The notes below the pieces were generated by a model. That model searched no databases, had not been told where the DNA came from, and worked only from the letters and a program-made list of their open reading frames with translations. Positions 3,614-64,000 of a stretch of DNA of 64,000 nucleotides are shown in pieces (the first letter of the stretch is position 1; every line of letters starts with the position of its first letter). Source of the DNA: Alphaproteobacteria bacterium (GTDB lineage Bacteria > Pseudomonadota > Alphaproteobacteria > RF32 > CAG-239). The stretch spans positions 4,851 to 68,850 of the forward strand of contig JAFUTN010000003.1 in the NCBI GenBank assembly GCA_017484225.1. Reading direction: 5' to 3'. The position numbers were made by a program, and so were the translations under genes.

Positions 3614-3686
3614 AAAACAAAACATTCTTTACATTAACGTAAATATTTGATAACATCTTTTTCAGGATATGTAAAAGACGTATCTC

Positions 3687-3871
3687 AGGGGATTAGAAAA
3701 CCCTTAAAATAAACGCAAAACTTGTATATTCAAGTCCTTTTTTTATACCGATAAAACTCGTAAATGGGTGTGATGTCGGTGAATAAGGCTATATGCTCAA
3801 TAAACTGAGCCGTTTTTAACGTTTATTTTACGGTTTTCTAACATCCGCCCACCGATTCAGGTGGCTTTTTT
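3687..3871 (+). promoter_or_regulatory. Structured leader RNA, copy 1 (degenerate variant), ending in an intrinsic terminator
   Basis: Has the family blocks AACCCT, GATGTCGGTGAATAAGG, GAGCC, ACGGTTTTCTAACATCCGCCC. Helices are AAAATAAACG (3706-3715) / CGTTTATTTT (3820-3829) and TTAGAAAACC (3693-3702) / GGTTTTCTAA (3832-3841). Terminator is CCACC-GATTCA-GGTGG-CTTTTTT (3849-3871). Confidence 0.75.
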
Positions 3872-3895
3872 GTAAACTCTTTTGATTTTGAAAGG

Positions 3896-4621
3896 ATGTT
3901 TGAAATGAAACATTTGTTATTTATTTTTTGTTTTATCGGTGCCGGTGCTGCTTTTGCCGAAACATGGAATTGCGGACCGGCAACTGACGGGGTGTATAGT
4001 GACAGCGTTAAATGCACGTATGATGAGGCAACAAAAACGCTTACCATATCAGGCGAAGGAGAAATGGGCGATTATAATGCTATAGATATTAATGGAGAGG
4101 ACGTATCCGATACACCATGGCTAAGAAAAGATATTGTTCACGCCGTTGTGGAAAAAGGTGTAACCACAATCGGAGACAGAGTATTTAAGGCATTATACAA
4201 TTTGGAAGATGTCACCGGATTGGAAAATATAACTTCTGTCGGCATAGCTTCTTTTTCTCAGGCACATAAGCTAGAAAGTGTAGACCTTCCTAATGTGCAA
4301 AATGTAGGCAGCAGCGCTTTTTATAGAACATTGAATTTGCAGTATGCAGGAATACCGGATGGTGTTATATTTGGCTACCGACAAGATCAGCCTGATGTAT
4401 TTGAAGGTTCTATGATTCCTAATTGCAAAACCGGAGACTGCGGAAGCTGCGGAGAAAAATTCGTGCAAGCGGGAGTTGGTTGTGTAAATGATTGCTATGT
4501 CGGATATTATCCGACGAATCAAGGATACTGCAAAATAATTAAACTCCGTTACACCCTGCCGGAAGCGGATGCGGCAACAAGTAATGACAATGAAAACACG
4601 ATTGAGTGGATTTTTGAGTAA
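3896..4621 (+). CDS. Secreted BspA-type LRR / Cys-rich protein, paralog 1 (IEWIFE-tag family)
   Basis: 241 aa. Signal peptide with AFA-ETW cleavage-like site, LRR_5-like repeats (..IGDRVF..L..V.GLENITSVG..AF..), a CGSCGEKFVQAGVGC module and the C-terminal RYTLPEADAATSNDNENTIEWIFE. The true start is probably the second ATG at 3905, because the first ATG overlaps the AAAGGA SD. Confidence 0.85.
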   Translation: MFEMKHLLFIFCFIGAGAAFAETWNCGPATDGVYSDSVKCTYDEATKTLTISGEGEMGDYNAIDINGEDVSDTPWLRKDIVHAVVEKGVTTIGDRVFKALYNLEDVTGLENITSVGIASFSQAHKLESVDLPNVQNVGSSAFYRTLNLQYAGIPDGVIFGYRQDQPDVFEGSMIPNCKTGDCGSCGEKFVQAGVGCVNDCYVGYYPTNQGYCKIIKLRYTLPEADAATSNDNENTIEWIFE

Positions 4622-10321: not shown

Positions 10322-10391
10322 TAAATATTGTTTCTTTACAAAAAAACTTTCTTTTGCTAAAGTAATTCTACGGTATGAAAAAACATGCCGG

Positions 10392-10559
10392 AGGGCGTCA
10401 CAACCCTAAACAGAAACGGTTGCACATATTTGCAACAACAAAATGTGCTGGTATTCGCGTTTGTGCGGATGTCAGCTGAATAAGGTTATGCCGAATAGGT
10501 TGAGCCGTCTGTTTCTGTACGGTTTGTGAACATCCGCCCGTTTTTGAACGGGATTTTTT
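10392..10559 (+). promoter_or_regulatory. Structured leader RNA, copy 2, ending in an intrinsic terminator
   Basis: Sequence AGGGCGTCACAACCCT ... GCGGATGTCAGCTGAATAAGG ... GAGCC ... ACGGTTTGTGAACATCCGCCC. Helices are ACAGAAAC/GTTTCTGT and CAC-AACC/GGTT-T-GTG. Terminator is CCCGTT-TTTG-AACGGG-ATTTTTT. Confidence 0.8.
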
Positions 10560-10585
10560 GTTAACTTTTTTAATTTAATGAAAGG

Positions 10586-11443
10586 ATGTTTGAAATGAAA
10601 CATTTAATACTTGCGGTAGCATTAACTTTTTTTGCCACACAGACGAATGCCGAAACTGCCGGAATTATCGGAACATGGCCTTGCGGTGCCGATTGCACGG
10701 CAACCCTTGATGATAAGGGAAATTTTCTGGTTGTCGGCAACGGACCAATGAATGACTATGGAACTACTCATGCATCTAATGGAGCGCCATTATTAACTAC
10801 TGCACCTTGGGCAGAACACCTTAGAGAAATTAAAAACATTGAAATAAACGGTGTCTCAAATGTTGGAAGAGATGCTTTTTTTTACAATGAAGGAGGCTCT
10901 CTAAAGCTACAATCCATAAAATTTGATGACACCGTTGAAACCATAAAAGGCGGTGCATTCCATAAAACAGAGTGTTCATATATTGAGCTGCCCGATTCTA
11001 TCAAAAAAATAGAAAGTTACGCCTTTTCAGGGCGCACAGAAATAGTTGTTCCCGATACATTAAATTCTATTACAGGAGACAGGCCTTTTGGTCAATATGC
11101 ATTAACAAATCTAAAAATTGTATGCAGAGGAAATAATTGTTTAAATGTTGAAAATTTATTTAAAAAATATACTCGCTATTTTGATGGTGCATGGATAACG
11201 GAAGATTTAAGCAATAATGTATATCTTGCCGGAGAAAATCAGTGCAATAGTGCAAAATATTATTGGACCGGCGGTTTGTGCAATAATCGCCCGACCGACG
11301 GAAGTGCAATAGAATGTGATGAAGGGTGGTATGCTACCAATAAAGATGTATGCGCAAGAATCAAGCTTCGCTATACCATACCGGAAGCCGACGAGGCAAC
11401 AAGCAACGATAACGAAAATACGATTGAGTGGATTTTTGAATGA
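10586..11443 (+). CDS. Secreted BspA-type LRR / Cys-rich protein, paralog 2
   Basis: 285 aa. Signal peptide, IIGTWPCGADCTATLDD N-terminal module, LRR-like repeats, and a C-terminal module CNSAKYYWTGGLCNNRPTDGSAIECDEGWYATNKDVCARIKLRYTIPEADEATSNDNENTIEWIFE. The likely start is the second ATG at 10595. Confidence 0.85.
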   Translation: MFEMKHLILAVALTFFATQTNAETAGIIGTWPCGADCTATLDDKGNFLVVGNGPMNDYGTTHASNGAPLLTTAPWAEHLREIKNIEINGVSNVGRDAFFYNEGGSLKLQSIKFDDTVETIKGGAFHKTECSYIELPDSIKKIESYAFSGRTEIVVPDTLNSITGDRPFGQYALTNLKIVCRGNNCLNVENLFKKYTRYFDGAWITEDLSNNVYLAGENQCNSAKYYWTGGLCNNRPTDGSAIECDEGWYATNKDVCARIKLRYTIPEADEATSNDNENTIEWIFE

Positions 11444-22214: not shown

Positions 22215-22318
22215 ATTTATATATCCTTCTTTTTTCCGGTTAAACCTCCGCAGAAACTCGGCCTTTCGGCACCGGAGCGAAAAACTTTTCAGCCTTCCGC
22301 CTGTCTGCGTGTGTAATT

Positions 22319-22403: not shown

Positions 22404-23126
22404 TTATTCAAATATCCACTCAATCCAATTTTCATTGTCATCAGAAGTCAATTCATCTGCTTCTTGTATAGTGTATCTTGTTCTATATACCGGTATTTCT
22501 TTAACAAAATTTCCCATATTCAGCAACGAAGAAACATAAGTTCTACAACTATCCTCAGAACAAGAATTTATTATTTCATCTTTACAGTCCGCAGCATTTT
22601 TTTCCAAACAATAAATATTGGATTCCGGTGATATTGTTGTATTATTAAACAAATTTGCCATATAGTTTACAGCTCCGGATAAAATAATATCTCCTGAAAT
22701 GTTATTACCCTTAAACACTTCCCGATCTATTCCGTTAAGTTGTATTTGACCTTCTTTTCCTACAATATTTGCACCCAATCCCAAAAAAGCATAAGCTCCT
22801 ACGCTAAAATCACCGTCAATAACTACCGTTTTAACGGTTATTTCTCCATTTCCACTCGGAAATGTCTTTTTGCTGGTATCCGTTTGATAGGAAAACGGCA
22901 TAAATGCACCCGCTTTTATTGTTGCATTTTCTCCTGTTGCCTTAACGGTCAAGGTTTCTGTTTCCAAATCATAACTGTAAGTGCAACCTGTGCCGCAATT
23001 ATTTTCAATATCCGGTTTCCATTCATTGCACGAAACGGCATAACCGTCGTAGCATTCAACCGCCTCTGCCGTTTGAAAATTAAACATTACAAAAACAAAA
23101 AATATAAAAAACTTCATAACAAACAT
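22404..23126 (-). CDS. Secreted Cys-rich repeat protein, paralog 4 (most divergent family member)
   Basis: 240 aa. Signal peptide, divergent repeat core, and C-terminus RTRYTIQEADELTSDDNENWIEWIFE. The likely start is the second ATG at 23117. Confidence 0.8.
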   Translation of the reverse strand: MFVMKFFIFFVFVMFNFQTAEAVECYDGYAVSCNEWKPDIENNCGTGCTYSYDLETETLTVKATGENATIKAGAFMPFSYQTDTSKKTFPSGNGEITVKTVVIDGDFSVGAYAFLGLGANIVGKEGQIQLNGIDREVFKGNNISGDIILSGAVNYMANLFNNTTISPESNIYCLEKNAADCKDEIINSCSEDSCRTYVSSLLNMGNFVKEIPVYRTRYTIQEADELTSDDNENWIEWIFE

Positions 23127-23153
23127 CCTCTTTGGTTATTTTTCAAAACTATT

Positions 23154-23314
23154 AAAAAAACCACCTCAAATGGTGGGCGGATGTTAGTAAACCGTATATA
23201 CGCAAACGGCTCAACCTATTCGGTATAACCTTATTCAGCTGACATCCGCTCAAAGCAAATACCAGCAAAAAGCCGTTAAACAACGACTGCGTATATTCAG
23301 GGTTACTACGCCCT
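23154..23314 (-). promoter_or_regulatory. Structured leader RNA, copy 3 of the shared class, ending in an intrinsic terminator
   Basis: RNA sense: AGGGCGTAGTAACCCT ... GCGGATGTCAGCTGAATAAGGTTATACCGAATAGGTTGAGCC ... ACGGTTTACTAACATCCGCCC. Helices are ATATACGCA/TGCGTATAT and AGT-AACC/GGTT-T-ACT. Terminator is CCACC-ATTTGA-GGTGG-TTTTTTT. Confidence 0.8.
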
Positions 23315-36164: not shown

Positions 36165-36605
36165 ATGTTAAAAAATTTATTTTTTGTATTTGTTTTGTTT
36201 TTTTCTTTTTCGGCAAAATCACAAATGGCTGATACCATTGGAGCGATGGGAATTCAAGGTGAGCTTACAACAGAAGGTTATGAAGCCATAAATCAAGGGC
36301 AGCAGGCTTTTTCACGAATGAAATTTCAGCAGGATTTAGGTGAAGTTGTTGCCGAAATTCAAACAACCTATTTCGGAAATTATGGCGGAATAAATAAATC
36401 GGCAATAATGTATGATGGTTTCAGAGGTATGGTTTGGGATGTAAAAGAAGACGGAGAGGGTGGTTTTTTTCTTGAGTTTAACGGGCTTGACGGACCGACA
36501 TGCTTTATAACAAAATCAAATCCGGCCGGAGCTAAAAAAACGGAAATAAATTCCGGCGCTGATTGTATGGCAAGCGGAAATAATGTAAAAATATTTTATA
36601 ATTAG
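36165..36605 (+). CDS. Hypothetical secreted protein
   Basis: 146 aa with a hydrophobic signal peptide. No recognisable domain. Its stop overlaps the fmt stop (convergent). Confidence 0.5.
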   Translation: MLKNLFFVFVLFFSFSAKSQMADTIGAMGIQGELTTEGYEAINQGQQAFSRMKFQQDLGEVVAEIQTTYFGNYGGINKSAIMYDGFRGMVWDVKEDGEGGFFLEFNGLDGPTCFITKSNPAGAKKTEINSGADCMASGNNVKIFYN

Positions 36606-37513
36606 GCAATAATATAACCGGATTCAAAAGAAAAACCTTTTAACAGTTCTTCTGTATCCATGGCTTTTTTGCCTTGTCGTTGCATTTTTTTAACCTCTAA
36701 TGAGCCGTTTTCACAACCGATAAATAATTTATCATCTTCTTGCATAATTTGTCCTACGGCAAGTTTTTTTGAGCTTTCTATAGCATATAAAATTTTAAAT
36801 CTTTCTTTGTTGTATTCAAAATAAACTGCCGGATAGGGGTTAAAAGCTCTTATTTTATTGCATAAATCATAAGAAGAAGCGGCAAAGTTTATTTTACATT
36901 CCGACTTATCAATTTTTTGTGCGTAACAAGATAAAGAATCGTCTTGTTTAATCGGCGGATATTTTTTGATATCGGCTAAAACTTTTGATATTAAATCAGC
37001 TCCGGCTAAAGAAAGTTTATCGTGCAAAAGTTCACCGGTAGTGTCTTGTTTTATTTCAACAACCGTTTTTGCCAACATATCTCCGGTATCAAGTCCTTCG
37101 GCCATTTGCATAACCGTAACGCCGCTTTCTTTATCACCGGCTTCTATTGCTCTTTGAATTGGAGCGGCACCGCGCCAACGCGGTAGTAAGGAAGCATGAA
37201 TATTAACACATCCGAAAGGGAAAGCTTCAAGAATTTCTTTTGGTAAAATAAGTCCGTATGCCGCAACTACGGCAATATCGGCATTTAAATCAGCAAATTT
37301 TTTTTGCTCATCAATATTTTTCAGCGTTTTTGGTGTTCTTACCTCAATCCCTGATTGTTCGGCAAACAAGTGAACCGGTGTTTTTGACAATAAATTTCCT
37401 CGTCCGGCTACTTTCGGTTCACGAGTATATACGCAAACAACATCATGTTCTTGTGTTAACCGCTGCAAAGCCGGAACGGAAAAATCCGGCGTCCCCATAA
37501 AAACAATTTTCAT
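36602..37513 (-). CDS. fmt: Methionyl-tRNA formyltransferase
   Basis: 303 aa with MKIVFMGTPDFSVPAL and HASLLPRWRGAAPIQRAI. Confidence 0.95.
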   Translation of the reverse strand: MKIVFMGTPDFSVPALQRLTQEHDVVCVYTREPKVAGRGNLLSKTPVHLFAEQSGIEVRTPKTLKNIDEQKKFADLNADIAVVAAYGLILPKEILEAFPFGCVNIHASLLPRWRGAAPIQRAIEAGDKESGVTVMQMAEGLDTGDMLAKTVVEIKQDTTGELLHDKLSLAGADLISKVLADIKKYPPIKQDDSLSCYAQKIDKSECKINFAASSYDLCNKIRAFNPYPAVYFEYNKERFKILYAIESSKKLAVGQIMQEDDKLFIGCENGSLEVKKMQRQGKKAMDTEELLKGFSFESGYIIA

Positions 37514-41709: not shown

Positions 41710-42414
41710 TCACTCAAAAATCCATTCTATCGTGTTTTCGTTGTCATCACTTGTTGCCGCATCTGCTTCCGGCAATGTGTAACGTGTGCGCGTGCAAAAC
41801 CCGTAATATGAAGTATATCCTTCAGGACACGAAGAAACACAACCAACTCCCGCTTGCACGAATTTTTCTCCGCAACTCCAACATTCTCCGGTTTTATGAC
41901 AATTCGGAATTTTTGAATTTTGAAAAGGTGTTTCTCCCCCACCAAATTCATCTTCCGAAAAAACAACATCTTCCGGAAGTTCAATATATTCCAATAATCT
42001 GGTACCCTTAAATGCTCTGCTTCCGATTTCCTGCACATTAGGCAAAAAAAGATTTTTTAAACTGTAAGTATAGGCAAAAGCAGAGTTTCCGATTTTTGTG
42101 ATATTTTCAAGTCCTGAAACATCACTAAGATTATGTAAATTATGAAAGACTCTGTTTCCAATGCTTGTAACATTACCTTCAACCACGGCGTGCCTTATAT
42201 CTTTTCCTTGCCATGGTGTGTATATATCTTTTACATAATCCCCCATTTCGCCTTCACCGGAAATTGTTAAAGTTTTACTTATCTCATTATACGTGCATTT
42301 AACGCTGTCACTATATACACCATTAGTTGCAGGTCCGCAGTTCCATGTTTCGGCAAAAGCAGCACCGGCACCGATAAAACAAAAAATAAATAACAAATGT
42401 TTCATTTCAAACAT
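41710..42414 (-). CDS. Secreted BspA-type LRR / Cys-rich protein, paralog 5
   Basis: Starts at MFEMKHLL (42414; the second ATG at 42405 is more likely). The first ~45 codons are nearly identical in nucleotide sequence to paralog 1. C-terminus is CGEKFVQAGVGCVSSCPEGYTSYYGFCTRTRYTLPEADAATSDDNENTIEWIFE. The track ORF extension to 42543 runs through the leader RNA. Confidence 0.85.
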   Translation of the reverse strand: MFEMKHLLFIFCFIGAGAAFAETWNCGPATNGVYSDSVKCTYNEISKTLTISGEGEMGDYVKDIYTPWQGKDIRHAVVEGNVTSIGNRVFHNLHNLSDVSGLENITKIGNSAFAYTYSLKNLFLPNVQEIGSRAFKGTRLLEYIELPEDVVFSEDEFGGGETPFQNSKIPNCHKTGECWSCGEKFVQAGVGCVSSCPEGYTSYYGFCTRTRYTLPEADAATSDDNENTIEWIFE

Positions 42415-42438
42415 CCTTTCAAAATCAAAAGAGTTTAC

Positions 42439-42624
42439 AAAAAAGCCACCTGAATCGGTGGGCGGATGTTCAGAAACCATACAAGTATTAAGATGGCTCG
42501 GCGTTTTCGCGCAAAAAGCCTTATTGCACCGACATCCGCTCAAAACAGAATGAACGAATTATCGGTTTAAACCTCAAAAAATCACAAACTTGTGACTAAT
42601 ACTTGTAAAGGGTTCTGACGCCCT
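42439..42624 (-). promoter_or_regulatory. Structured leader RNA, copy 4 of the shared class, ending in an intrinsic terminator
   Basis: RNA sense: AGGGCGTCAGAACCCT ... GCGGATGTCGGTGCAATAAGGC ... CGCCGAGCC ... TGGTTTCTGAACATCCGCCC. Helices are TACAAGTATTA/TAATACTTGTA and CAG-AACC/GGTT-T-CTG. Terminator is CCACC-GATTCA-GGTGG-CTTTTTT. Confidence 0.8.
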
Positions 42625-47370: not shown

Positions 47371-47544
47371 AGGGCGTAGCAACCCTTTGAAAAAATCTGT
47401 CGTTTTATGACGATATGTATGCCGATTTCGCATGTATTGATGTGCGGATGTCGGTGTTATAAGGCTTAAAGCACGAAATCGCCGAGCCGATTTGATTTTT
47501 TCACGGTTTGCTAACATCCGCCCACCATTTAAGGTGGCTTTTTT
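47371..47544 (+). promoter_or_regulatory. Structured leader RNA, copy 5 of the shared class, ending in an intrinsic terminator
   Basis: AGGGCGTAGCAACCCT ... GCGGATGTCGGTGTTATAAGGC ... CGCCGAGCC ... ACGGTTTGCTAACATCCGCCC. Helices are GAAAAAATC (47389-47397) / GATTTTTTC (47494-47502) and AGC-AACC/GGTT-T-GCT. Terminator is CCACC-ATTTAA-GGTGG-CTTTTTT. Confidence 0.8.
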
Positions 47545-47571
47545 ATTAATTTTTTTAACTTTAATGAAAGG

Positions 47572-48387
47572 ATGTTTGTAATGAAAAAAGTTAGCTTAAT
47601 TTGCTTTTTTATTCTTTTATCACTAAATGCGAAAGCAAAAATTATCGGCACATGGCCATGCGGAGATGATTGCACGGCAACTCTTGATGACAGCGGGCAT
47701 TTCAAGGTTACCGGAACCGGTGCTACACTGACCTATGGTCATTATTCGCAACCATGGAGCGATAAACTTTCACAGATAACTTCGGTGGAAATAGAAGGTT
47801 TAACGACTATAAACACCAATCTGACTTATTTTTCTCCGATTACGGAATTGAAATTAAGTGATTCCGTTAAGAATATTCTCGGTGGATTTGAAGGTAATCA
47901 CTTGCAAAAGCTGGAACTTCCCGACTCTGTGGAAAGAATTTCAAATTATGCCTTGGCAAGCTCTTCTCTTGTTGAAATTATTGTTCCGGATTCTATTTTA
48001 TCGTTTGGTGGACCGAATAGTTTGGGAGGGCTTGGGCAAATACAAGATAAAAACATCATTTGTCGCGGAGATAATTGCGATAAAGTATCAGATTTGCTCA
48101 AAAATTACATAATCACATACAAAATTAACGGAGAATATCATACAGCCGATGTCAGCGACAGGATGTCATTAGCCGGGGAAAATCAGTGCAACAGTGCAAA
48201 ATATTATTGGACCGGCGGTTTGTGTAATAATCGCCCGACCGACGGAAGTGCAATAGAATGTGACGAAGGGTGGTATGCTACCAATAAAGATGTGTGTGCC
48301 AGAATTAAAATACGTTACACCATTCCGGAAGCAGATGAATTAACCTCAAATGACAACGAAAATATGATTGAGTGGATTTTTGAGTAA
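47572..48387 (+). CDS. Secreted LRR / Cys-rich protein, paralog 6
   Basis: 271 aa. Has the IIGTWPCGDDCTATLDD N-terminal module, like paralog 2. Its C-terminal ~60 aa are almost identical to paralog 2 and it ends IRYTIPEADELTSNDNENMIEWIFE. The likely start is 47581. Confidence 0.85.
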   Translation: MFVMKKVSLICFFILLSLNAKAKIIGTWPCGDDCTATLDDSGHFKVTGTGATLTYGHYSQPWSDKLSQITSVEIEGLTTINTNLTYFSPITELKLSDSVKNILGGFEGNHLQKLELPDSVERISNYALASSSLVEIIVPDSILSFGGPNSLGGLGQIQDKNIICRGDNCDKVSDLLKNYIITYKINGEYHTADVSDRMSLAGENQCNSAKYYWTGGLCNNRPTDGSAIECDEGWYATNKDVCARIKIRYTIPEADELTSNDNENMIEWIFE

Positions 48388-48614: not shown

Positions 48615-49358
48615 TTATTCAAAAATCCATTCAATCATATTTTCGTTATCATTACTTGTCGCCGCATCAGCTTCCGGTAAGGTATAGCGTTTGCGCGTGC
48701 AAAACCCATAATATGAAGTATATCCTGTATAACAACTACTTACACACCCAACTCCCGCTTGCACAAATTTTTCTCCGCAACTTCCGCATTCTCCGGTTTT
48801 TCGGCAGTTTGATAATTTTGAACCACCAAAAGTCTCTCTATTACTGGCTGCAACCGTATCCGGACCATAGATAACGCCATCCGGAATACCGACATATTCC
48901 AGGCTACTTGTTCCATAAAAAGCGATACCACCTATTTCCTGCACATTAGGTAAATCTATGCTTATCAAAGAAGCGGCTCCATAAAAGGCAGTATCTCCGA
49001 CAGAAACTATATTTTCTGTGCCTTCAATATCTTGCAAATTACGAGCATTCTTAAAAGTTCTGGCTCCGATACTGGTTACATTGCCTTCCACAACTGCATG
49101 AACGATATCTTTACCAAACCATGGGGCAGTAGATCCGTCTTTTCCATTCACACTAGCATAAGGATAATCACCCATTTCTCCCTCGCCGGAAATTGTTAAA
49201 GTTTTTGTTGCCTCATCATAGGTGCATTTCACGCTGTCACTGTATACCCCGTCGGTTGCCGGCCCGCAGTTCCATGTTTCGGCTCTTGCTTTATTTACCA
49301 AAACAAAAATTAAAGAAAATATAAGTCCTAAAAATCCAAAACGTTTCATTTCAAACAT
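48615..49358 (-). CDS. Secreted BspA-type LRR / Cys-rich protein, paralog 7
   Basis: 247 aa. ETWNCGPATDGVYSDSVKCTYDEATKTLTISGEGEMGDY is identical to paralog 1. Has LRR_5-like repeats and the C-terminus GYTSYYGFCTRKRYTLPEADAATSNDNENMIEWIFE. The likely start is 49349. Confidence 0.85.
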   Translation of the reverse strand: MFEMKRFGFLGLIFSLIFVLVNKARAETWNCGPATDGVYSDSVKCTYDEATKTLTISGEGEMGDYPYASVNGKDGSTAPWFGKDIVHAVVEGNVTSIGARTFKNARNLQDIEGTENIVSVGDTAFYGAASLISIDLPNVQEIGGIAFYGTSSLEYVGIPDGVIYGPDTVAASNRETFGGSKLSNCRKTGECGSCGEKFVQAGVGCVSSCYTGYTSYYGFCTRKRYTLPEADAATSNDNENMIEWIFE

Positions 49359-49385
49359 CCTTTCATTAAATTAAAAAAAGTTAAC

Positions 49386-49572
49386 AAAAAAACCCGCTTC
49401 AAAAAGACGGGCGGATGTTAGCAAACCGTATTCTATCAACCGGCTCGGCGTTTTCGCGCTTTTTATAAGAGCCTTATTACACCGACATCCGCTCCACAAA
49501 AAAGAACGAAGTCGGTAAACACCAACAAATCGCAATAAATGCGACCGATAGAATAAAGGGTTGCTACGCCCT
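49386..49572 (-). promoter_or_regulatory. Structured leader RNA, copy 6 of the shared class, ending in an intrinsic terminator
   Basis: RNA sense: AGGGCGTAGCAACCCT ... GCGGATGTCGGTGTAATAAGGC ... CGCCGAGCC ... ACGGTTTGCTAACATCCGCCC. Helices are ATTCTATC/GATAGAAT and AGC-AACC/GGTT-T-GCT. Terminator is CCCGTCTT..GAAGCGGG-TTTTTTT. Confidence 0.8.
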
Positions 49573-50609: not shown

Positions 50610-53600
50610 CTAAATCTCCTTTACCAAAGTAACGCCGTTAATTGCGCGGATATTTGAAATCGCCGTTCCGTCTGCCAAGGTATACCCGTTTTTGAGTTCT
50701 ATCCGGACATCCCAATCATCAAGCTCCGGTTTTATGTAAACTTTATTTGTTCCGAAATGTTCCTTCATTAAAGCTTCGCGAATCGGCTTAATTGCTTCGG
50801 TATTGTTTACATATATAATCAAACCTTTTGAATTTTCCGCAATGGCATCATCAAGTGTTTTGATTATATTATAACGAATGCGAGGCGGAATATCTTCGGA
50901 TTGTTTTTCAATAATAACTTGTGCAAATAAAGGAAGTCCGCTTTTCAAGGCATCCTCATATTTAGCCATATCATCTCCAAAAACAAACCCCTCAAACTCG
51001 CCGGTTGCGTCCGACATCTTAACAATTCCGTAAGGTTTGCCGTTTTTGCTGATTTTGCGCTGAAAATTTTGCAAACATCCGGCCAAATTTACTTGCAATT
51101 TGTCTCCGACTTTGATGTTTTTTATGGCATCAACAGATTTTTGTATACCCAAACGTTCCATGCTGTCCGAGTAGTTGTCCAAAGGGTGAGACGAAAGATA
51201 AAATCCGATAGCCTCCGCCTCATTTTGCAGGCGTTCAAGGTTAGGCCAGTCGGCTTTATCTTGTAATTTTACTTCGGAAGCAAGTTCCTGCGCACCGAAA
51301 AGAGATGTTTGTGAACTGGTTTTCAGTTCTGCCGACGAGGCTATGTGCCGCATGATGTTATCAATATTGGCGAATAGTTTTGCCCGATTGGAATCCAAAC
51401 AATCAAAAGCCCCTGCTTTTATGAGCTGCTCAATTTGTTTGCGGTTGATTTGTTTTATATCCACGCGGTGAATGAAATCGGACATATTTTTGAATTTACC
51501 GTTTTTTTTGCGCTCATCAACAATGGCCTGCATATTTGCTTCACCAACTCCCTTTATGCCGGCTAAAGCAAAACGAATATTGCCGTTTTCTACGGTGAAC
51601 AAAGCCTCAGATTCATTAATATTCGGCACTAAAACGTCAAAGCCCATTTTTTTGACTTCTTCGCGGTAAAAAGAAATTTTGTCGGTATTTGTTATATCAA
51701 AATCCATGATTGCGCACATAAATTCTACCGGATAATGTGCTTTTAAATATGCGGTTTGGTATGAAATTAAGGAATAAGCGGCTGCGTGAGACTTATTAAA
51801 TCCGTATTCGGCAAATTTTGCCATCTGGTCAAAAATTGCACCGGATACATCTGTCGGAATCCCTTTTTTTGTTGCTCCCTCCATGAACATTTCACGTTGG
51901 TGAGGGATTTCGTCTACCATTTTTTTACCCATAACTTTACGCAGCTTATCTGCACCGCCTAAAGTATATCCGCCGAGAACTTGGGCAATTTTCATAACTT
52001 GTTCCTGATATACCATGATGCCGTATGTTTCATCAAGTATGGGGGCTAAATCGGGGTGCAGGTATTCTATTTTTTCTATGCCGTGTTTGCGGTTGATAAA
52101 TGTCGGAATATTTCCCATCGGTCCCGGACGATATAGCGAAATTACGGCAATAAGATCTTCAAAACGGTCGGGTTTTATTTGCTGAATAACATCACGCATT
52201 CCCGCTGATTCAAACTGAAAAACAGCACTGGTGTATCCGTCTTGCAAAAGTTTATAAGTATCTTTGTCATCAAGCGGAACCGAAGCCATATCCAGCTCTA
52301 TGCCGTGAATTCTTTTTACCCAGTCCACGGCTCGCTTGATAACGGTTAAGGTTTTTAATCCTAAAAAGTCAAATTTAATTAAGCCGGTTTCTTCAACAAA
52401 CTTCATGTCGTATTGGGTTACCGGCATATCGGCTCGCGGGTCTTTATAAAGCGGAACAAGCTGGTCAAGAGGTCTGTCTCCGATAACAACTCCGGCAGCG
52501 TGCATTCCGGAGTTACGATAAAGTCCCTCAAGTTTTATGGCTATATCAAAAAGCTTGTTTATTTGCGGATCTTTAACTCGCATTTCTTCCATTTCCGGAA
52601 CTTGTTCCAAAGCTTCCGGAAGTGTCGGATTTTTACCGCCCTGTCCTTTCGGAATCATTTTGGAAATGCGGTCTGCCTGAGTGTAAGGCATTTGTAAAAC
52701 GCGAGCAACATCACGTATAACGGCCTTTGATTGCAATTTGCCGTAAGTTATGATTTGTGCCACGTGGTCAAATCCATATTTCTTTTGCACGTATTCTATT
52801 GTTTTATAACGATTTTCCTGACACAAGTCTACGTCAAAATCCGGCATGTTTACACGCTCCGGATTCAAAAATCTTTCAAACAGCAAATCTAAGCGAATCG
52901 GATCCAAATCCGTGATTTTTAATGCCCATGCCACAATGGAACCTGCGCCGGATCCTCTTCCGGGGCCGATTGGAACACCATGAGTTTTGGACCAGCGGAT
53001 AAAGTCTGACACAATTAAAAAGTATCCGGGAAAGCCCATTTTTTTGATAACGCACAACTCATAATCAAGGCGCTCATAGTATATTCTGTCGGTTTTTTGC
53101 TTTTCTTCTTCCGTCATTTCCGGTGTATACACCTGAAGCATCATTCTCTCGTGCAGACCTTTATATGCTTCGTTGGTAATAAATTCGTCCTGCGTCATTC
53201 CGTCAGGACAAATAAAAATAGGCAAAAGAGGTTCTTTTTTTTGCGAAAGAAAGTTGCAGCGTTTTGCTATGTTTACCGTGTTTTGCAAGGCTTCGGGAAT
53301 GTCGCTGAACAACTCCTGCATTTCGCTTTCGCTGCGCCAACGATTAGTCGGTAAATAGCGGCGACGATTTTCGTTTGCAACATATTCTCCCTGAGCAATA
53401 CAAACGAGTGCGTCATGCGCTTCATACATGTCAGTATCAAAAAAATAAACATCATTGGTGGCCACAAGAGGAATATCGTATTTGTAAGCCATGTCAATGA
53501 AGGCACTTTCCGTGCGTTTTTCTTCGTCATAACCGACACGAGAAATTTCTATGTATAAATTATCTTTGAAGATATCTTTCAATTCCAGCAGCTTTTTTTC

Positions 53601-54083
53601 CGCTTCTTGGCGGCGGTTTTGAAGAATAAGCCTGCCGATTGGTCCGTCATATCCTCCGGTAAGACAGATTAATCCGTCGTGAAAATCTTGCAAATTTTGC
53701 ATGTTAATCTGCGGTATATCGCTGTGTTCCGTGTTGTCCATGTAGTAACGGCGAAAAAGCTTCATCAGAGAAGCGTAACCGTTTTCGTTTTTAACAAGTA
53801 TGATTATTCTGTCGGGATCCTGTTCTCTGCCTTTTGAGAGTAAAATATTGTCCGAATCGTCATTGTGCAAGCACAATTCCGAGCCGAGAATCGGCTTTAT
53901 GCCGGCATCAGATGCATATTTTGAAAAGGCTTTGCCCCCAAACAAGTTTCCGCGATCTGTTATTGCGCAAGCCGGAACATTCAGAGCCTTGAGTTTTTTT
54001 GTGAGTGCAGGAACGGTTGTTGCTCCCAGAGAAAGGGAGTAAGCGGTATGGACACGCAGGTTGATAAACTTAGGCTCAGGCAT
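50610..54083 (-). CDS. dnaE: DNA polymerase III alpha subunit
   Basis: 1157 aa. N-terminal PHP domain (FINLRVHTAYSL), the polymerase core (PDFDVDLCQ, GMHAAGVVI) and an OB domain. Confidence 0.97.
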   Translation of the reverse strand: MPEPKFINLRVHTAYSLSLGATTVPALTKKLKALNVPACAITDRGNLFGGKAFSKYASDAGIKPILGSELCLHNDDSDNILLSKGREQDPDRIIILVKNENGYASLMKLFRRYYMDNTEHSDIPQINMQNLQDFHDGLICLTGGYDGPIGRLILQNRRQEAEKKLLELKDIFKDNLYIEISRVGYDEEKRTESAFIDMAYKYDIPLVATNDVYFFDTDMYEAHDALVCIAQGEYVANENRRRYLPTNRWRSESEMQELFSDIPEALQNTVNIAKRCNFLSQKKEPLLPIFICPDGMTQDEFITNEAYKGLHERMMLQVYTPEMTEEEKQKTDRIYYERLDYELCVIKKMGFPGYFLIVSDFIRWSKTHGVPIGPGRGSGAGSIVAWALKITDLDPIRLDLLFERFLNPERVNMPDFDVDLCQENRYKTIEYVQKKYGFDHVAQIITYGKLQSKAVIRDVARVLQMPYTQADRISKMIPKGQGGKNPTLPEALEQVPEMEEMRVKDPQINKLFDIAIKLEGLYRNSGMHAAGVVIGDRPLDQLVPLYKDPRADMPVTQYDMKFVEETGLIKFDFLGLKTLTVIKRAVDWVKRIHGIELDMASVPLDDKDTYKLLQDGYTSAVFQFESAGMRDVIQQIKPDRFEDLIAVISLYRPGPMGNIPTFINRKHGIEKIEYLHPDLAPILDETYGIMVYQEQVMKIAQVLGGYTLGGADKLRKVMGKKMVDEIPHQREMFMEGATKKGIPTDVSGAIFDQMAKFAEYGFNKSHAAAYSLISYQTAYLKAHYPVEFMCAIMDFDITNTDKISFYREEVKKMGFDVLVPNINESEALFTVENGNIRFALAGIKGVGEANMQAIVDERKKNGKFKNMSDFIHRVDIKQINRKQIEQLIKAGAFDCLDSNRAKLFANIDNIMRHIASSAELKTSSQTSLFGAQELASEVKLQDKADWPNLERLQNEAEAIGFYLSSHPLDNYSDSMERLGIQKSVDAIKNIKVGDKLQVNLAGCLQNFQRKISKNGKPYGIVKMSDATGEFEGFVFGDDMAKYEDALKSGLPLFAQVIIEKQSEDIPPRIRYNIIKTLDDAIAENSKGLIIYVNNTEAIKPIREALMKEHFGTNKVYIKPELDDWDVRIELKNGYTLADGTAISNIRAINGVTLVKEI

Positions 54084-63115: not shown

Positions 63116-63291
63116 AGGGCGTGACAACCCTTTGTAAAACTCTGTCGCAATACTTTGCGAACAAATTACCGATAGTTCGTTCTTGTAATGAGCGGATGTC
63201 GGTGTTATAAGGCTTTAGCACGAAATCGCCGAGCCGTTTTGAGTTTTACACGGTTTGTCAACATCCGCCCACCAATTCAGGTGGCTTTTTT
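63116..63291 (+). promoter_or_regulatory. Structured leader RNA, copy 7 of the shared class, ending in an intrinsic terminator
   Basis: AGGGCGTGACAACCCT ... GCGGATGTCGGTGTTATAAGGC ... CGCCGAGCC ... ACGGTTTGTCAACATCCGCCC. Helices are GTAAAACTC/GAGTTTTAC and GAC-AACC/GGTT-T-GTC. Terminator is CCACC-AATTCA-GGTGG-CTTTTTT. Confidence 0.8.
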
Positions 63292-63314
63292 ATTAACTTT
63301 TTTAGATTAAGAGG

Positions 63315-64000
63315 ATGTTTGATATGAAATATTTAGCATTTACTTTTTGTTTTATCGGTGCAGGTGTTGCCTTTGCCGAAACATGGAATTGCGGACCGGC
63401 AACCGACGGGGTATACAGCGACAGTGTTAAATGCACGTATGATGAGGAAAGTAAGACTTTAACCATTTCCGGCGAAGGACCAATGGGGAATTATGCTTCA
63501 ATAAATAATAACTCCACGGCTCCGTGGTATGGCAAAGATATTGTTCATGCCGTTATAGAAGGAAATGTAACAAGTATCGGAGACAGGGTATTTAAGCACG
63601 CTGAGAATTTAACAGATATTGTCGGGTTAGAAAATATAACACACCTTGGTTATGCCTCATTCAGTGGAGCCTCTTCACTGGTTAGTATTGATTTACCTAA
63701 TGTGCAGGAAATAGGCGGCGTTGCTTTTCATTATACATCAAGTCTTGAGTATGCCGGTATTCCGGATGATGTTACTTATGGTTCGGACCCTTTATCACGC
63801 GATAATTTTGAGGGTTCAAAATTATCAAATTGCCGAAAAACCGGAGAATGCGGCAGCTGCGGAGATAAATTTGTGCAAGCGGGAGTTGGGTGTGTTTCTT
63901 CGTGTCCTGAAGGATATACTTCATATTATGGGTTTTGCACGCGCACACGTTACACTCTGCCGGAAGCCGACGAGGCAACAAGTAATGATAACGAAAACAC
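63315..64000 (+). CDS. Secreted BspA-type LRR / Cys-rich protein, paralog 8 (3' end runs off the window)
   Basis: Not in the ORF track because no stop is reached. My own translation gives M(FDM)KYLAFTFCFIGAGVAFAETWNCGPATDGVYSDSVKCTYDEESKTLTISGEGPMGNY ... CGDKFVQAGVGCVSSCPEGYTSYYGFCTRTRYTLPEADEATSNDNEN. The likely start is 63324. Confidence 0.85.
   Translation, partial: MFDMKYLAFTFCFIGAGVAFAETWNCGPATDGVYSDSVKCTYDEESKTLTISGEGPMGNYASINNNSTAPWYGKDIVHAVIEGNVTSIGDRVFKHAENLTDIVGLENITHLGYASFSGASSLVSIDLPNVQEIGGVAFHYTSSLEYAGIPDDVTYGSDPLSRDNFEGSKLSNCRKTGECGSCGDKFVQAGVGCVSSCPEGYTSYYGFCTRTRYTLPEADEATSNDNEN

Follow-up and report, generated by a model that had tools for sequence, protein, structure and literature searches.

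Seven times in one 64,000-nucleotide (nt) stretch of an alphaproteobacterial contig (JAFUTN010000003.1; the whole stretch is called the window here), the same block, AACATCCGCCC, stands a short distance ahead of a ribosome-binding site (RBS), which raises the question of what the block does there. A preliminary description made from the letters alone had taken it for the switching strand of an expression platform, of the kind that riboswitches and attenuators use. We find that the block, at 3840-3850 in its first copy, is the contested strand of a leader with at least two incompatible sets of helices, each of which covaries, and that the short address segments a and b, through which leader and core pair, are specific to each copy. 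We favor, at a probability of roughly 0.55, a reading in which the element is a four-strand leader switch resembling C4 antisense RNA, gene-specific and probably toggled by the locus's own RNA acting in trans.

Matches to AACATCCGCCC with up to one mismatch were counted across the window and compared with 100 shuffled versions. The seven exact copies lie at 3840, 10529, 47513 and 63260 on the + strand and at 23185, 42470 and 49419 on the - strand; matches with at most one mismatch number eight against ~0.84 expected, a count reached in 0 of 100 shuffles. The sequence AGGATGTT also occurs exactly seven times, in each case at the RBS behind an element (2.15 expected; seven reached in 0 of 100 shuffles). 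The block belongs to a unit of ~240 nt that runs, in order, from a promoter-like site through hairpins H0 and Ha, a variable stretch, hairpin Hb and a strand called seg3 to a core of ~85 nt that ends in AACATCCGCCC. Behind the core follow a short hairpin with a T-tract, a spacer of 20-35 nt, AGGATGTT, and the ATG of a gene for a secreted protein with BspA-type leucine-rich repeats (LRR).

The same unit was collected outside the window by two pattern scans. One, over one genome per species, gave more than 108 loci; the other, over metagenomes, left the 3' strand of helix P1 free. Together they yielded at least 189 elements in at least 178 loci, from which 147 non-redundant sequences were aligned, and covariation is given below as double changes in that alignment. 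For the first copy, the layout in the preliminary description (block at 3840-3850, hairpin and T6 at 3848-3871, AGGATGTT at 3893-3900, ATGs at 3896 and 3905) is as described, and the whole unit, on the + strand throughout, reads:

3628-3656, + strand: promoter-like site read from the sequence (TTTACA, 17 nt, TG-n-TAACAT), with a predicted start near 3663
3664-3686, + strand: H0, the 5'-terminal hairpin, its stem kept by differing sequences in each copy and present in all minimum-free-energy (MFE) folds
3687-3704, + strand: hairpin Ha (AGGG..CCCT), whose loop shows address a1 (TAGAAA, 3694-3699)
3705-3715, + strand: address b1 (TAAAATAAACG), perfect complement of the P3 loop at 3820-3830
3720-3735, + strand: hairpin Hb (ACTTG..CAAGT; AGTCG..CGACT in most family members), all five pairs covarying and 97.6% of alignment cells paired
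3747-3752, + strand: seg3 (ACCGAT; GCCGAYTTCTGTCC in most members), upstream decoy strand for the 5' strands of P1 and P2
3766-3776, + strand: 5' strand of P1 (GGGTG-T-GATGT), partner of ACATCCGCCC; other window copies have GAGCGGATGT or GTGCGGATGT
3777-3807, + strand: P2 arm, in which GAATAAGG and AATAA are conserved and unpaired; 95% of cells pair, with 12 double changes, and RNAalifold predicts the arm from the core alone
3809-3834, + strand: P3 hairpin (GCCG..CGGT), whose loop is address b' (3820-3830); 15 sequences have A:U in place of G:C, with pairing in 100% of cells
3835-3840, + strand: address a' (TTTCTA), complementary to a1, the single-stranded link from P3 to P1
3841-3850, + strand: 3' strand of P1, ACATCCGCCC, the shared strand (within the block at 3840-3850)
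3848-3871, + strand: intrinsic-terminator-like hairpin CCACC-GATTCA-GGTGG with T6, -8.5 kcal/mol, overlapping P1 by 2-3 nt
3893-3907, + strand: RBS AGGATGTT (3893-3900), complementary to AACATCC, and likely start codon ATG (3905-3907)

Within the core, unguided RNAalifold prediction on 51 isolated cores returned a three-helix architecture in which P1 (CGGATGT:ACATCCG) encloses P2 and P3. Over the 147 sequences, 93.2% of cells in these helices can pair, versus 35-45% when the partners are slid, with 15 double changes in P3, 12 in P2 and 2-4 in P1. The 5' strand of P1 is GGgCGGATGT in most members and pairs over up to 10 base pairs (bp), whereas the window copies, with GAGCGG or GTGCGG, form 8 bp and a mismatch. 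The preliminary description had called this internal complement of the block perfect in every copy. The pairing stands and is backed by covariation; its length does not, since it extends over only 8 bp (GCGGATGT:ACATCCGC) with the first A of the block opposite C, and in the very copy cited, at 3840, GGGTGTGATGT gives a 10-bp helix with a bulged T. That copy is the most degenerate of the seven, with GGGGA in place of GGGCG at its 5' site and a P2 of 4 bp that includes a G·U pair; our core model still scores it at 72.5 bits.

The 3' strand of P1 is nearly invariant, being conserved in 75 of ~85 true hits among the matches listed even though the pattern left it free, so its pairings are supported by a single variant lineage together with enrichment statistics. 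The lineage consists of two metagenomic members, L115 and L139, which have AAAATCC instead of AACATCC. In both, the 5' strand of P1 reads GGATTT, turning a G:C pair of the helix into U:A; the partner base in seg3 is A; and the RBS, here AGGATTTCAGAAATG, forms 12 bp with a' and the altered strand. Four strands altered in concert are what would be expected if seg3 with the P1 5' strand, the two strands of P1 with each other, and the P1 3' strand with the RBS were all real helices.

The claim that AACATCC can pair with the RBS gains further weight from two comparisons. AGGATGTT occurs 129 times in 1.375 Mb of family loci, and 95 of these occurrences fall within 130 nt downstream of an element, where 1.15 are expected (an 80-fold enrichment). 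Duplexes of GGTTTNNNAACATCCGCC with the unit's own RBS window average -12.6 kcal/mol, versus -7.7 kcal/mol at 662 control open reading frame (ORF) starts (p = 1e-37). The match to the RBS also extends weakly into a' (permutation p 0.018 / 0.0008). The second ATG was rightly proposed as the start codon: it is always present, while the first, which lies inside the RBS element, is missing in L115 and L139 and meets an in-frame stop in L010.

The strand has two further partners. Its last C residues enter a hairpin that, with its U-tract, has the form of an intrinsic terminator in 147 of 150 units (predicted, mean -10.1 kcal/mol). The overlap that the preliminary description saw in the window holds across the family, for all three terminal C residues lie in the hairpin in 140 of 147 units with a T-tract; five window copies use two. 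The window stems are those described earlier: five copies have CCACC/GGTGG, the one at 10537 has CCCGTT/AACGGG, and in the 49.4-kb copy CCCGTCTT pairs with GAAGCGGG around a bulge. Their energies run from -6.4 to -8.5 kcal/mol, and a terminator scan called the identical sites of copies 42470 and 47513. The other partner strand, the fifth, is seg3, which the preliminary description did not contain. In most members seg3 forms a local hairpin of ~14 bp with the 5' strands of P1 and P2, paired in 98.6% of cells over six counted pairs, three of them with double changes, and this hairpin displaces P1 in the MFE of 107 of 147 segments running from seg3 to the P1 3' strand. The earlier view that the block engages in mutually exclusive helices is borne out.

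Two more pairings, likewise new, join the leader to the core, and they are copy-specific. In all of 102 units, the leader contains the complement of that unit's a' (the reverse complement of TTNNNA), which is present in 2.7% of leaders whose a' is another. Double changes, which number in the hundreds over the addresses, come to 41, 62 and 70 at the three variable pairs of a1 with a', and 99% remain paired. For the second address, the longest exact b1:b' complement averages 9.1 nt in the own leader versus 5.5 nt in foreign leaders, and all seven aligned pairs covary; because MAFFT aligns the variable b segments imperfectly (80% paired), these b counts are conservative. In a 7 x 7 matrix of leader-by-core duplexes for the window copies, own combinations averaged -22.0 kcal/mol (-20.5 to -23.5), versus -7.7 on average and -13.6 kcal/mol at best for all others.

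The addresses also change faster than their surroundings. Among 55 pairs of units that differ by no more than 5% elsewhere, the a columns carry 0.225 and the b columns 0.178 differences per column, versus 0.024 for the rest, a divergence 7-9 times faster. Within the core itself, hypervariability is confined to the P3 loop and to three bases of the joint GGTTT-NNN-AAC. A search of the window for trans targets of the P3 loops gave AT-rich matches at chance level and one 14-mer. The 14-nt P3-loop sequence of copy 23185 (GTTTGCGTATATAC) is found exactly at 37425-37438 on the - strand, ~75 nt inside ORF 36602-37513, with no other part of the element there; by a hand estimate, the composition-corrected chance of such a match is roughly 1e-3.

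Which known RNA does the core resemble? In E-value mode, just two Rfam families align to the element, C4 antisense RNA (RF01695, clan CL00128) and sRNA-Xcc1 (RF02221). Both align over their full length (1-87 of 87) to the same stretch, in four of the seven copies, at 25-29.5 bits: RF01695 scores best at 63184-63276 (29.5 bits) and has 25.8 bits at 47436-47529, and sRNA-Xcc1 scores 25-27.5 bits at its four copies. The joint GGUUU-NNN-AAC and the 3' R-C-C tail resemble the C4 consensus (CCaCC for the tail), and R-C-C/T follows P1 in 48 of 51 cores. ARAGORN called no transfer RNA (tRNA) or transfer-messenger RNA in the window.

The likeness extends to the order of the parts. The GenBank record of phage P1 lists a promoter, a1 (TTGACAG, 48255-48261), b1 (GTTAGTGC, 48269-48276), the 77-nt c4 RNA, a2, b2 and icd; in the c4 RNA, b' (CACTAAC) occupies the P3 loop, and a' (CTGTCAA) the joint ahead of the 3' strand of helix P1. 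The window elements have the same anatomy, with a1 and then b1 upstream, b' in the P3 loop, a' in the joint and the regulated gene downstream, and as in P1/P7 heteroimmunity specificity lies in short a/b differences. By eye, the phage P1 sequence (L109, 48326-48356) has ACGCCC just upstream of c4, complementary to GGGCGT in the 5' strand of the c4 closing helix and reminiscent of seg3. The c4 and 'c4-a1b1' motifs were both listed by Weinberg et al. 2010 (PMC2864571). We conclude that the core is either distantly related to C4 antisense RNA or closely analogous to it in structure.

There are also differences from the P1/P7 system. The closing helix spans 10 bp here, compared with 17 bp; a predicted intrinsic terminator directly abuts the core; seg3 is a distinguishing feature; b2 is absent and a2 rudimentary, while the RBS has its complement in the 3' strand of the closing helix itself; and the elements are chromosomal, multi-copy and alphaproteobacterial, standing before exported-protein genes rather than icd or ant, with none found in IMG/VR contigs. 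What is known is a C4-type module; what is new is its place as a fixed leader of exported-protein genes, with an abutting terminator, a closing-helix strand that serves as anti-RBS, seg3 and no b2.

To see how these strands might share a transcript, we turn to folding models. The MFE of the full transcript is a leader-bound fold in 7 of 7 copies, with a1:a', b1:b', seg3 on the P1 5' strand and often GGGCG:CGCCC. In constrained-fold energies, which disregard pseudoknots, this fold beats the nested C4 fold in 145 of 147 members, on average by 17.5 kcal/mol. The RBS is free of the block in 9-10 of 12 modeled transcripts in the leader-bound fold. When a1 and b1 are masked, a' and the P1 3' strand shift onto the region from the Shine-Dalgarno sequence to the AUG in 11 of 12 transcripts, versus 2 of 12 unmasked, and masking is also predicted to free the CCC for the terminator.

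These models suggest the following course for the switch that we favor. In each unit, transcription would begin at a promoter of its own and yield the leader of an exported-protein gene. Strand 1 (seg3) or strand 3 (ACATCCGCCC) could hold strand 2 (GGgCGGATGT); strand 3, lengthened by a', could instead hold strand 4 (the RBS AGGATGTT), and its final CCC would also begin the terminator stem. As long as a1 and b1 hold a' and b' in cis, possibly extended by GGGCG:CGCCC, the 5' strand of the terminator and the anti-RBS strand would be occupied, and a weak terminator, read-through and an open RBS should result. Were a1 and b1 unavailable, strand 3 would be released, the terminator would form, and any read-through messenger RNA would have its RBS sequestered. 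The likeliest cause of such a loss would be that a1 and b1 are bound in trans by a core from a further transcript of that locus, a transcript that may be terminated and perhaps processed by RNase P like C4. The result would be gene-specific autoregulation as in phage P1, exerted through the leader address and not through a2/b2 at the RBS. Autoregulation in trans would explain why the addresses are orthogonal and evolve fast, and why a1 is displayed in a hairpin loop.

Several observations weigh against this reading. By the Rfam scores, all below the gathering scores of 45 (RF01695) and 53 bits (sRNA-Xcc1), the core is not a member of either family, and in the reverse test our own core model gave phage P1 c4 only 8.7 bits, although this was the best hit of that region. 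Covariation of the P1 3' strand comes from one lineage of two sequences. The pairing of the 5' GGGCG with CGCCC, proposed in the preliminary description, can form, being pairable in 96% of cells and present in MFE folds, but none of its pairs shows a double change in the family alignment, and its GGG is part of hairpin Ha, which does covary (the closing pair changes from A:U to U:A, G:C or C:G in 11 sequences); the helix would, for its part, explain the conserved C and G in the Ha loop. Termination control by P1 itself would be weak in the window, where the A·C or U·C mismatch in GAGCGG or GTGCGG and the overlap of only 2 nt speak against P1 as a strong antiterminator.

Other points concern the proposed action of the RNA. 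A downstream b2, as in phage P1, was not found (b' matches its own downstream region over 5.59 nt and those of others over 5.48 nt), and a' matches downstream in 15.7% of own cases versus 11.1% of others, which makes a2 weak; targets of the a2/b2 type were accordingly rejected. With seg3 attached, the C4 fold is not the predicted ground state, and its formation is unexplained. An intramolecular partner normally out-competes one in trans. The action in trans, the cleavage by RNase P and the ON/OFF polarity are all predictions from thermodynamic models.

The strongest competitor, which we regard as possible if clearly less probable, keeps the same helices and dispenses with a trans-acting RNA: a1/b1 and a'/b' would pair only within one molecule, as in a pure cis attenuator, and the fold would be chosen by kinetics, by an RNase that cuts off the leader (whereupon P1 would form and the RBS be freed), by temperature or by translation. 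All partners do lie within one transcript, the fold of leader with core is the predicted ground state, intramolecular pairing is kinetically favored, and without seg3 and the leader the C4 fold would be the sole option. This explanation leaves three things without a reason, namely the 7-9 times faster divergence of the a/b columns, the mutual orthogonality of paralogues in the same genome, and the display of a1 in a hairpin loop beside a single-stranded b1, in the manner of an antisense target. An extension of the trans reading, which we consider unlikely, is that each exported-protein gene has a bistable, self-addressed RNA switch with ON and OFF states that are heritable without any DNA change. 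Transcripts paired in cis would read through, be translated and show no free address, whereas those whose leaders are captured in trans would terminate and expose a' and b', free to seize the leader that emerges next from that gene and from no other.

More doubtful still is the idea that the element is a free-standing gene for a trans-acting, C4-like small RNA (sRNA) with targets elsewhere, its position before exported-protein genes being incidental or due to a shared promoter region. There is a precedent in the Group 1 C4-like sRNAs of Acinetobacter baumannii, which, in the sections of the report that treat them, are chromosomal, multi-copy and variable in a' and b', with a core that appears to be processed from a longer transcript with an extended 5' region (Weiss et al. 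2016, PMC5320573). Each unit here does have a predicted promoter and terminator of its own, and the 14-nt copy of a P3 loop at 37425-37438 lies in an unrelated ORF. Yet a co-oriented ORF starts within ~150 nt after the element in 7 of 7 window copies and in the family members examined, which leaves no room for another promoter; the RBS is specifically complementary to, and covaries with, a strand of the core; and no other good pair of a/b targets was found in the window. The Acinetobacter RNAs and sRNA-Xcc1 resemble our elements as chromosomal, multi-copy RNAs of C4 shape, but they are described as standing alone and belong to other taxa, and those sections report no fixed downstream gene, anti-RBS strand or a1/b1 in cis for them.

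A sensor of metabolites or ions, with the core as aptamer and AACATCCGCCC as switching strand, is the least probable of these explanations, at the edge of what we would entertain. The core is strongly conserved and contains conserved unpaired nucleotides (GAAUAAGG, AAUAAG and GAGCC), and a terminator combined with an anti-RBS strand is typical of expression platforms. Nevertheless, no riboswitch family matched, either at the gathering score or at E up to 10; the genes served are diverse exported proteins with no common metabolic theme or pathway, and offer no candidate ligand; and many copies per genome, each with its own address, would be of no use to a ligand sensor. Of the expression platform seen in the preliminary description, the mutually exclusive helices remain, and there is no sign of a ligand-binding riboswitch.

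In its overlapping helices (1:2, 2:3, 3:4), which decide on a terminator or on RBS sequestration, the leader is comparable to four-strand attenuators of the trp-leader type and to riboswitch platforms. Unlike these, it has no leader peptide and no recognizable aptamer, and the deciding input is apparently the address pairing of RNA with RNA. Terminated riboswitch and leader transcripts can act in trans as sRNAs, as Listeria SreA/SreB do, and the concept of a terminated leader product that is itself a regulator is shared; the target proposed here, on which the RNA would act in trans, differs in being the RNA's own leader. A literature search found no description of this arrangement.

If the C4-like switch is as we picture it, a device of phage immunity would have become a general chromosomal leader controlling secreted and surface proteins, in an abundant and uncultured group of gut Alphaproteobacteria. 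The segments a1 and b1, annotated in the phage P1 record only as 'putative' C4 target sites, would gain a testable role. The addresses form a natural library, in which one constant scaffold carries many RNA pairs that are orthogonal to each other, and this could aid the design of parallel RNA regulators. Feedback in trans, if it occurs, would give compact, independent control of many paralogous surface-protein genes; bistability, if it did, would mean phase variation that leaves the DNA unchanged, with orthogonal a/b addresses setting the state of each of dozens of surface proteins in a cell independently of the others.

The genes behind the elements are consistent in export and varied in kind. 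In the window, six of the seven ORFs match LRR_5 (BspA-type LRR), and all seven have an N-terminus like a signal peptide; the ORF behind copy 3840, which ends at 4621, encodes an LRR_5 protein with a signal peptide. Across the family, and counting among the matches listed, a signal-peptide or lipobox-like start is present in 97 of 177 downstream genes and a prepilin-like GRSMIE motif in at least 20 of 177. The types include LRR_5, lipoprotein-like, PEGA (matched in one tested example, L022) and prepilin-like proteins, with no phage immunity context of the icd/ant type. Members that stand before genes with a prepilin-like N-terminus (MYKNFEKGRSMIEMLGVLAII..., e.g. L004, L007, L013, L024 and L033), roughly one fifth of the family, use the RBS GGAG(G)TT(T)AGAAATATG, which is still complementary to the core strand with one mismatch; for one such protein, Pfam at E 0.01 gave nothing.

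Nearly all loci among the matches listed come from metagenome-assembled genomes of uncultured gut Alphaproteobacteria. Their hosts are human, ruminant and others, and a single genome often holds several loci. None of 30 pattern hits in IMG/VR belongs to the family, all being chance matches in ORFs, and a phage origin of the subfamily was rejected on this basis. In two metagenomic members, L228 (~4641) and L195 (- strand, ~615 on the reverse complement), the element is complete as far as AACATCCG, where unrelated AT-rich DNA takes over, which in L228 contains a serine-recombinase-like ORF and an ATPase-like ORF of 471 amino acids. The break may mark an island inserted at the 3' end of a tRNA-like helix.

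The other six copies in the window, with their scores against our core model, are:

10363-10597, + strand: second copy; a1 10398-10403, b1 10410-10417, P1 3' strand 10530-10539, RBS 10583-10590, ATG 10595; 77.4 bits
23115-23343, - strand: third copy; P1 3' strand 23175-23184, RBS 23122-23129, ATG 23115-23117; 81.6 bits
42403-42653, - strand: fourth copy; P1 3' strand 42460-42469, RBS 42410-42417; 78.9 bits
47342-47583, + strand: fifth copy; P1 3' strand 47514-47523, RBS 47569-47576; 74.5 bits
49347-49601, - strand: sixth copy; P1 3' strand 49409-49418, RBS 49354-49361; 70.1 bits
63087-63326, + strand: seventh copy; P1 3' strand 63261-63270, RBS 63312-63319; 77.9 bits

In all six, Ha begins with GGGCG. 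A TCTTTACA..N17..TAAAAT-like arrangement is found upstream of family members as well, and a promoter scan called sites at copies 49419 and 42470. A search of the window with the core model for further, diverged copies gave only the seven (70-82 bits). The eighth match to the block, AACATCCGGCC at 51074-51084 with one mismatch, lies within ORF 50610-54083 and opposite its coding strand; it has nothing else in common with the seven copies and was rejected as an element, being a chance match.

Between copies 3840 and 42470, identity reaches 100% only over the stretch from terminator to signal peptide (3851-3950 versus 42360-42459) and is 55-80% in the flanks, which suggests recombination or gene conversion between paralogous cassettes. 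At gathering scores, the only Rfam match in the whole window, and thus none at the elements, was an rpsB leader (RF01815) at 22222-22313 on the - strand, with 41.9 bits against a gathering score of 40; it lies directly downstream of the ORF served by copy 23185.

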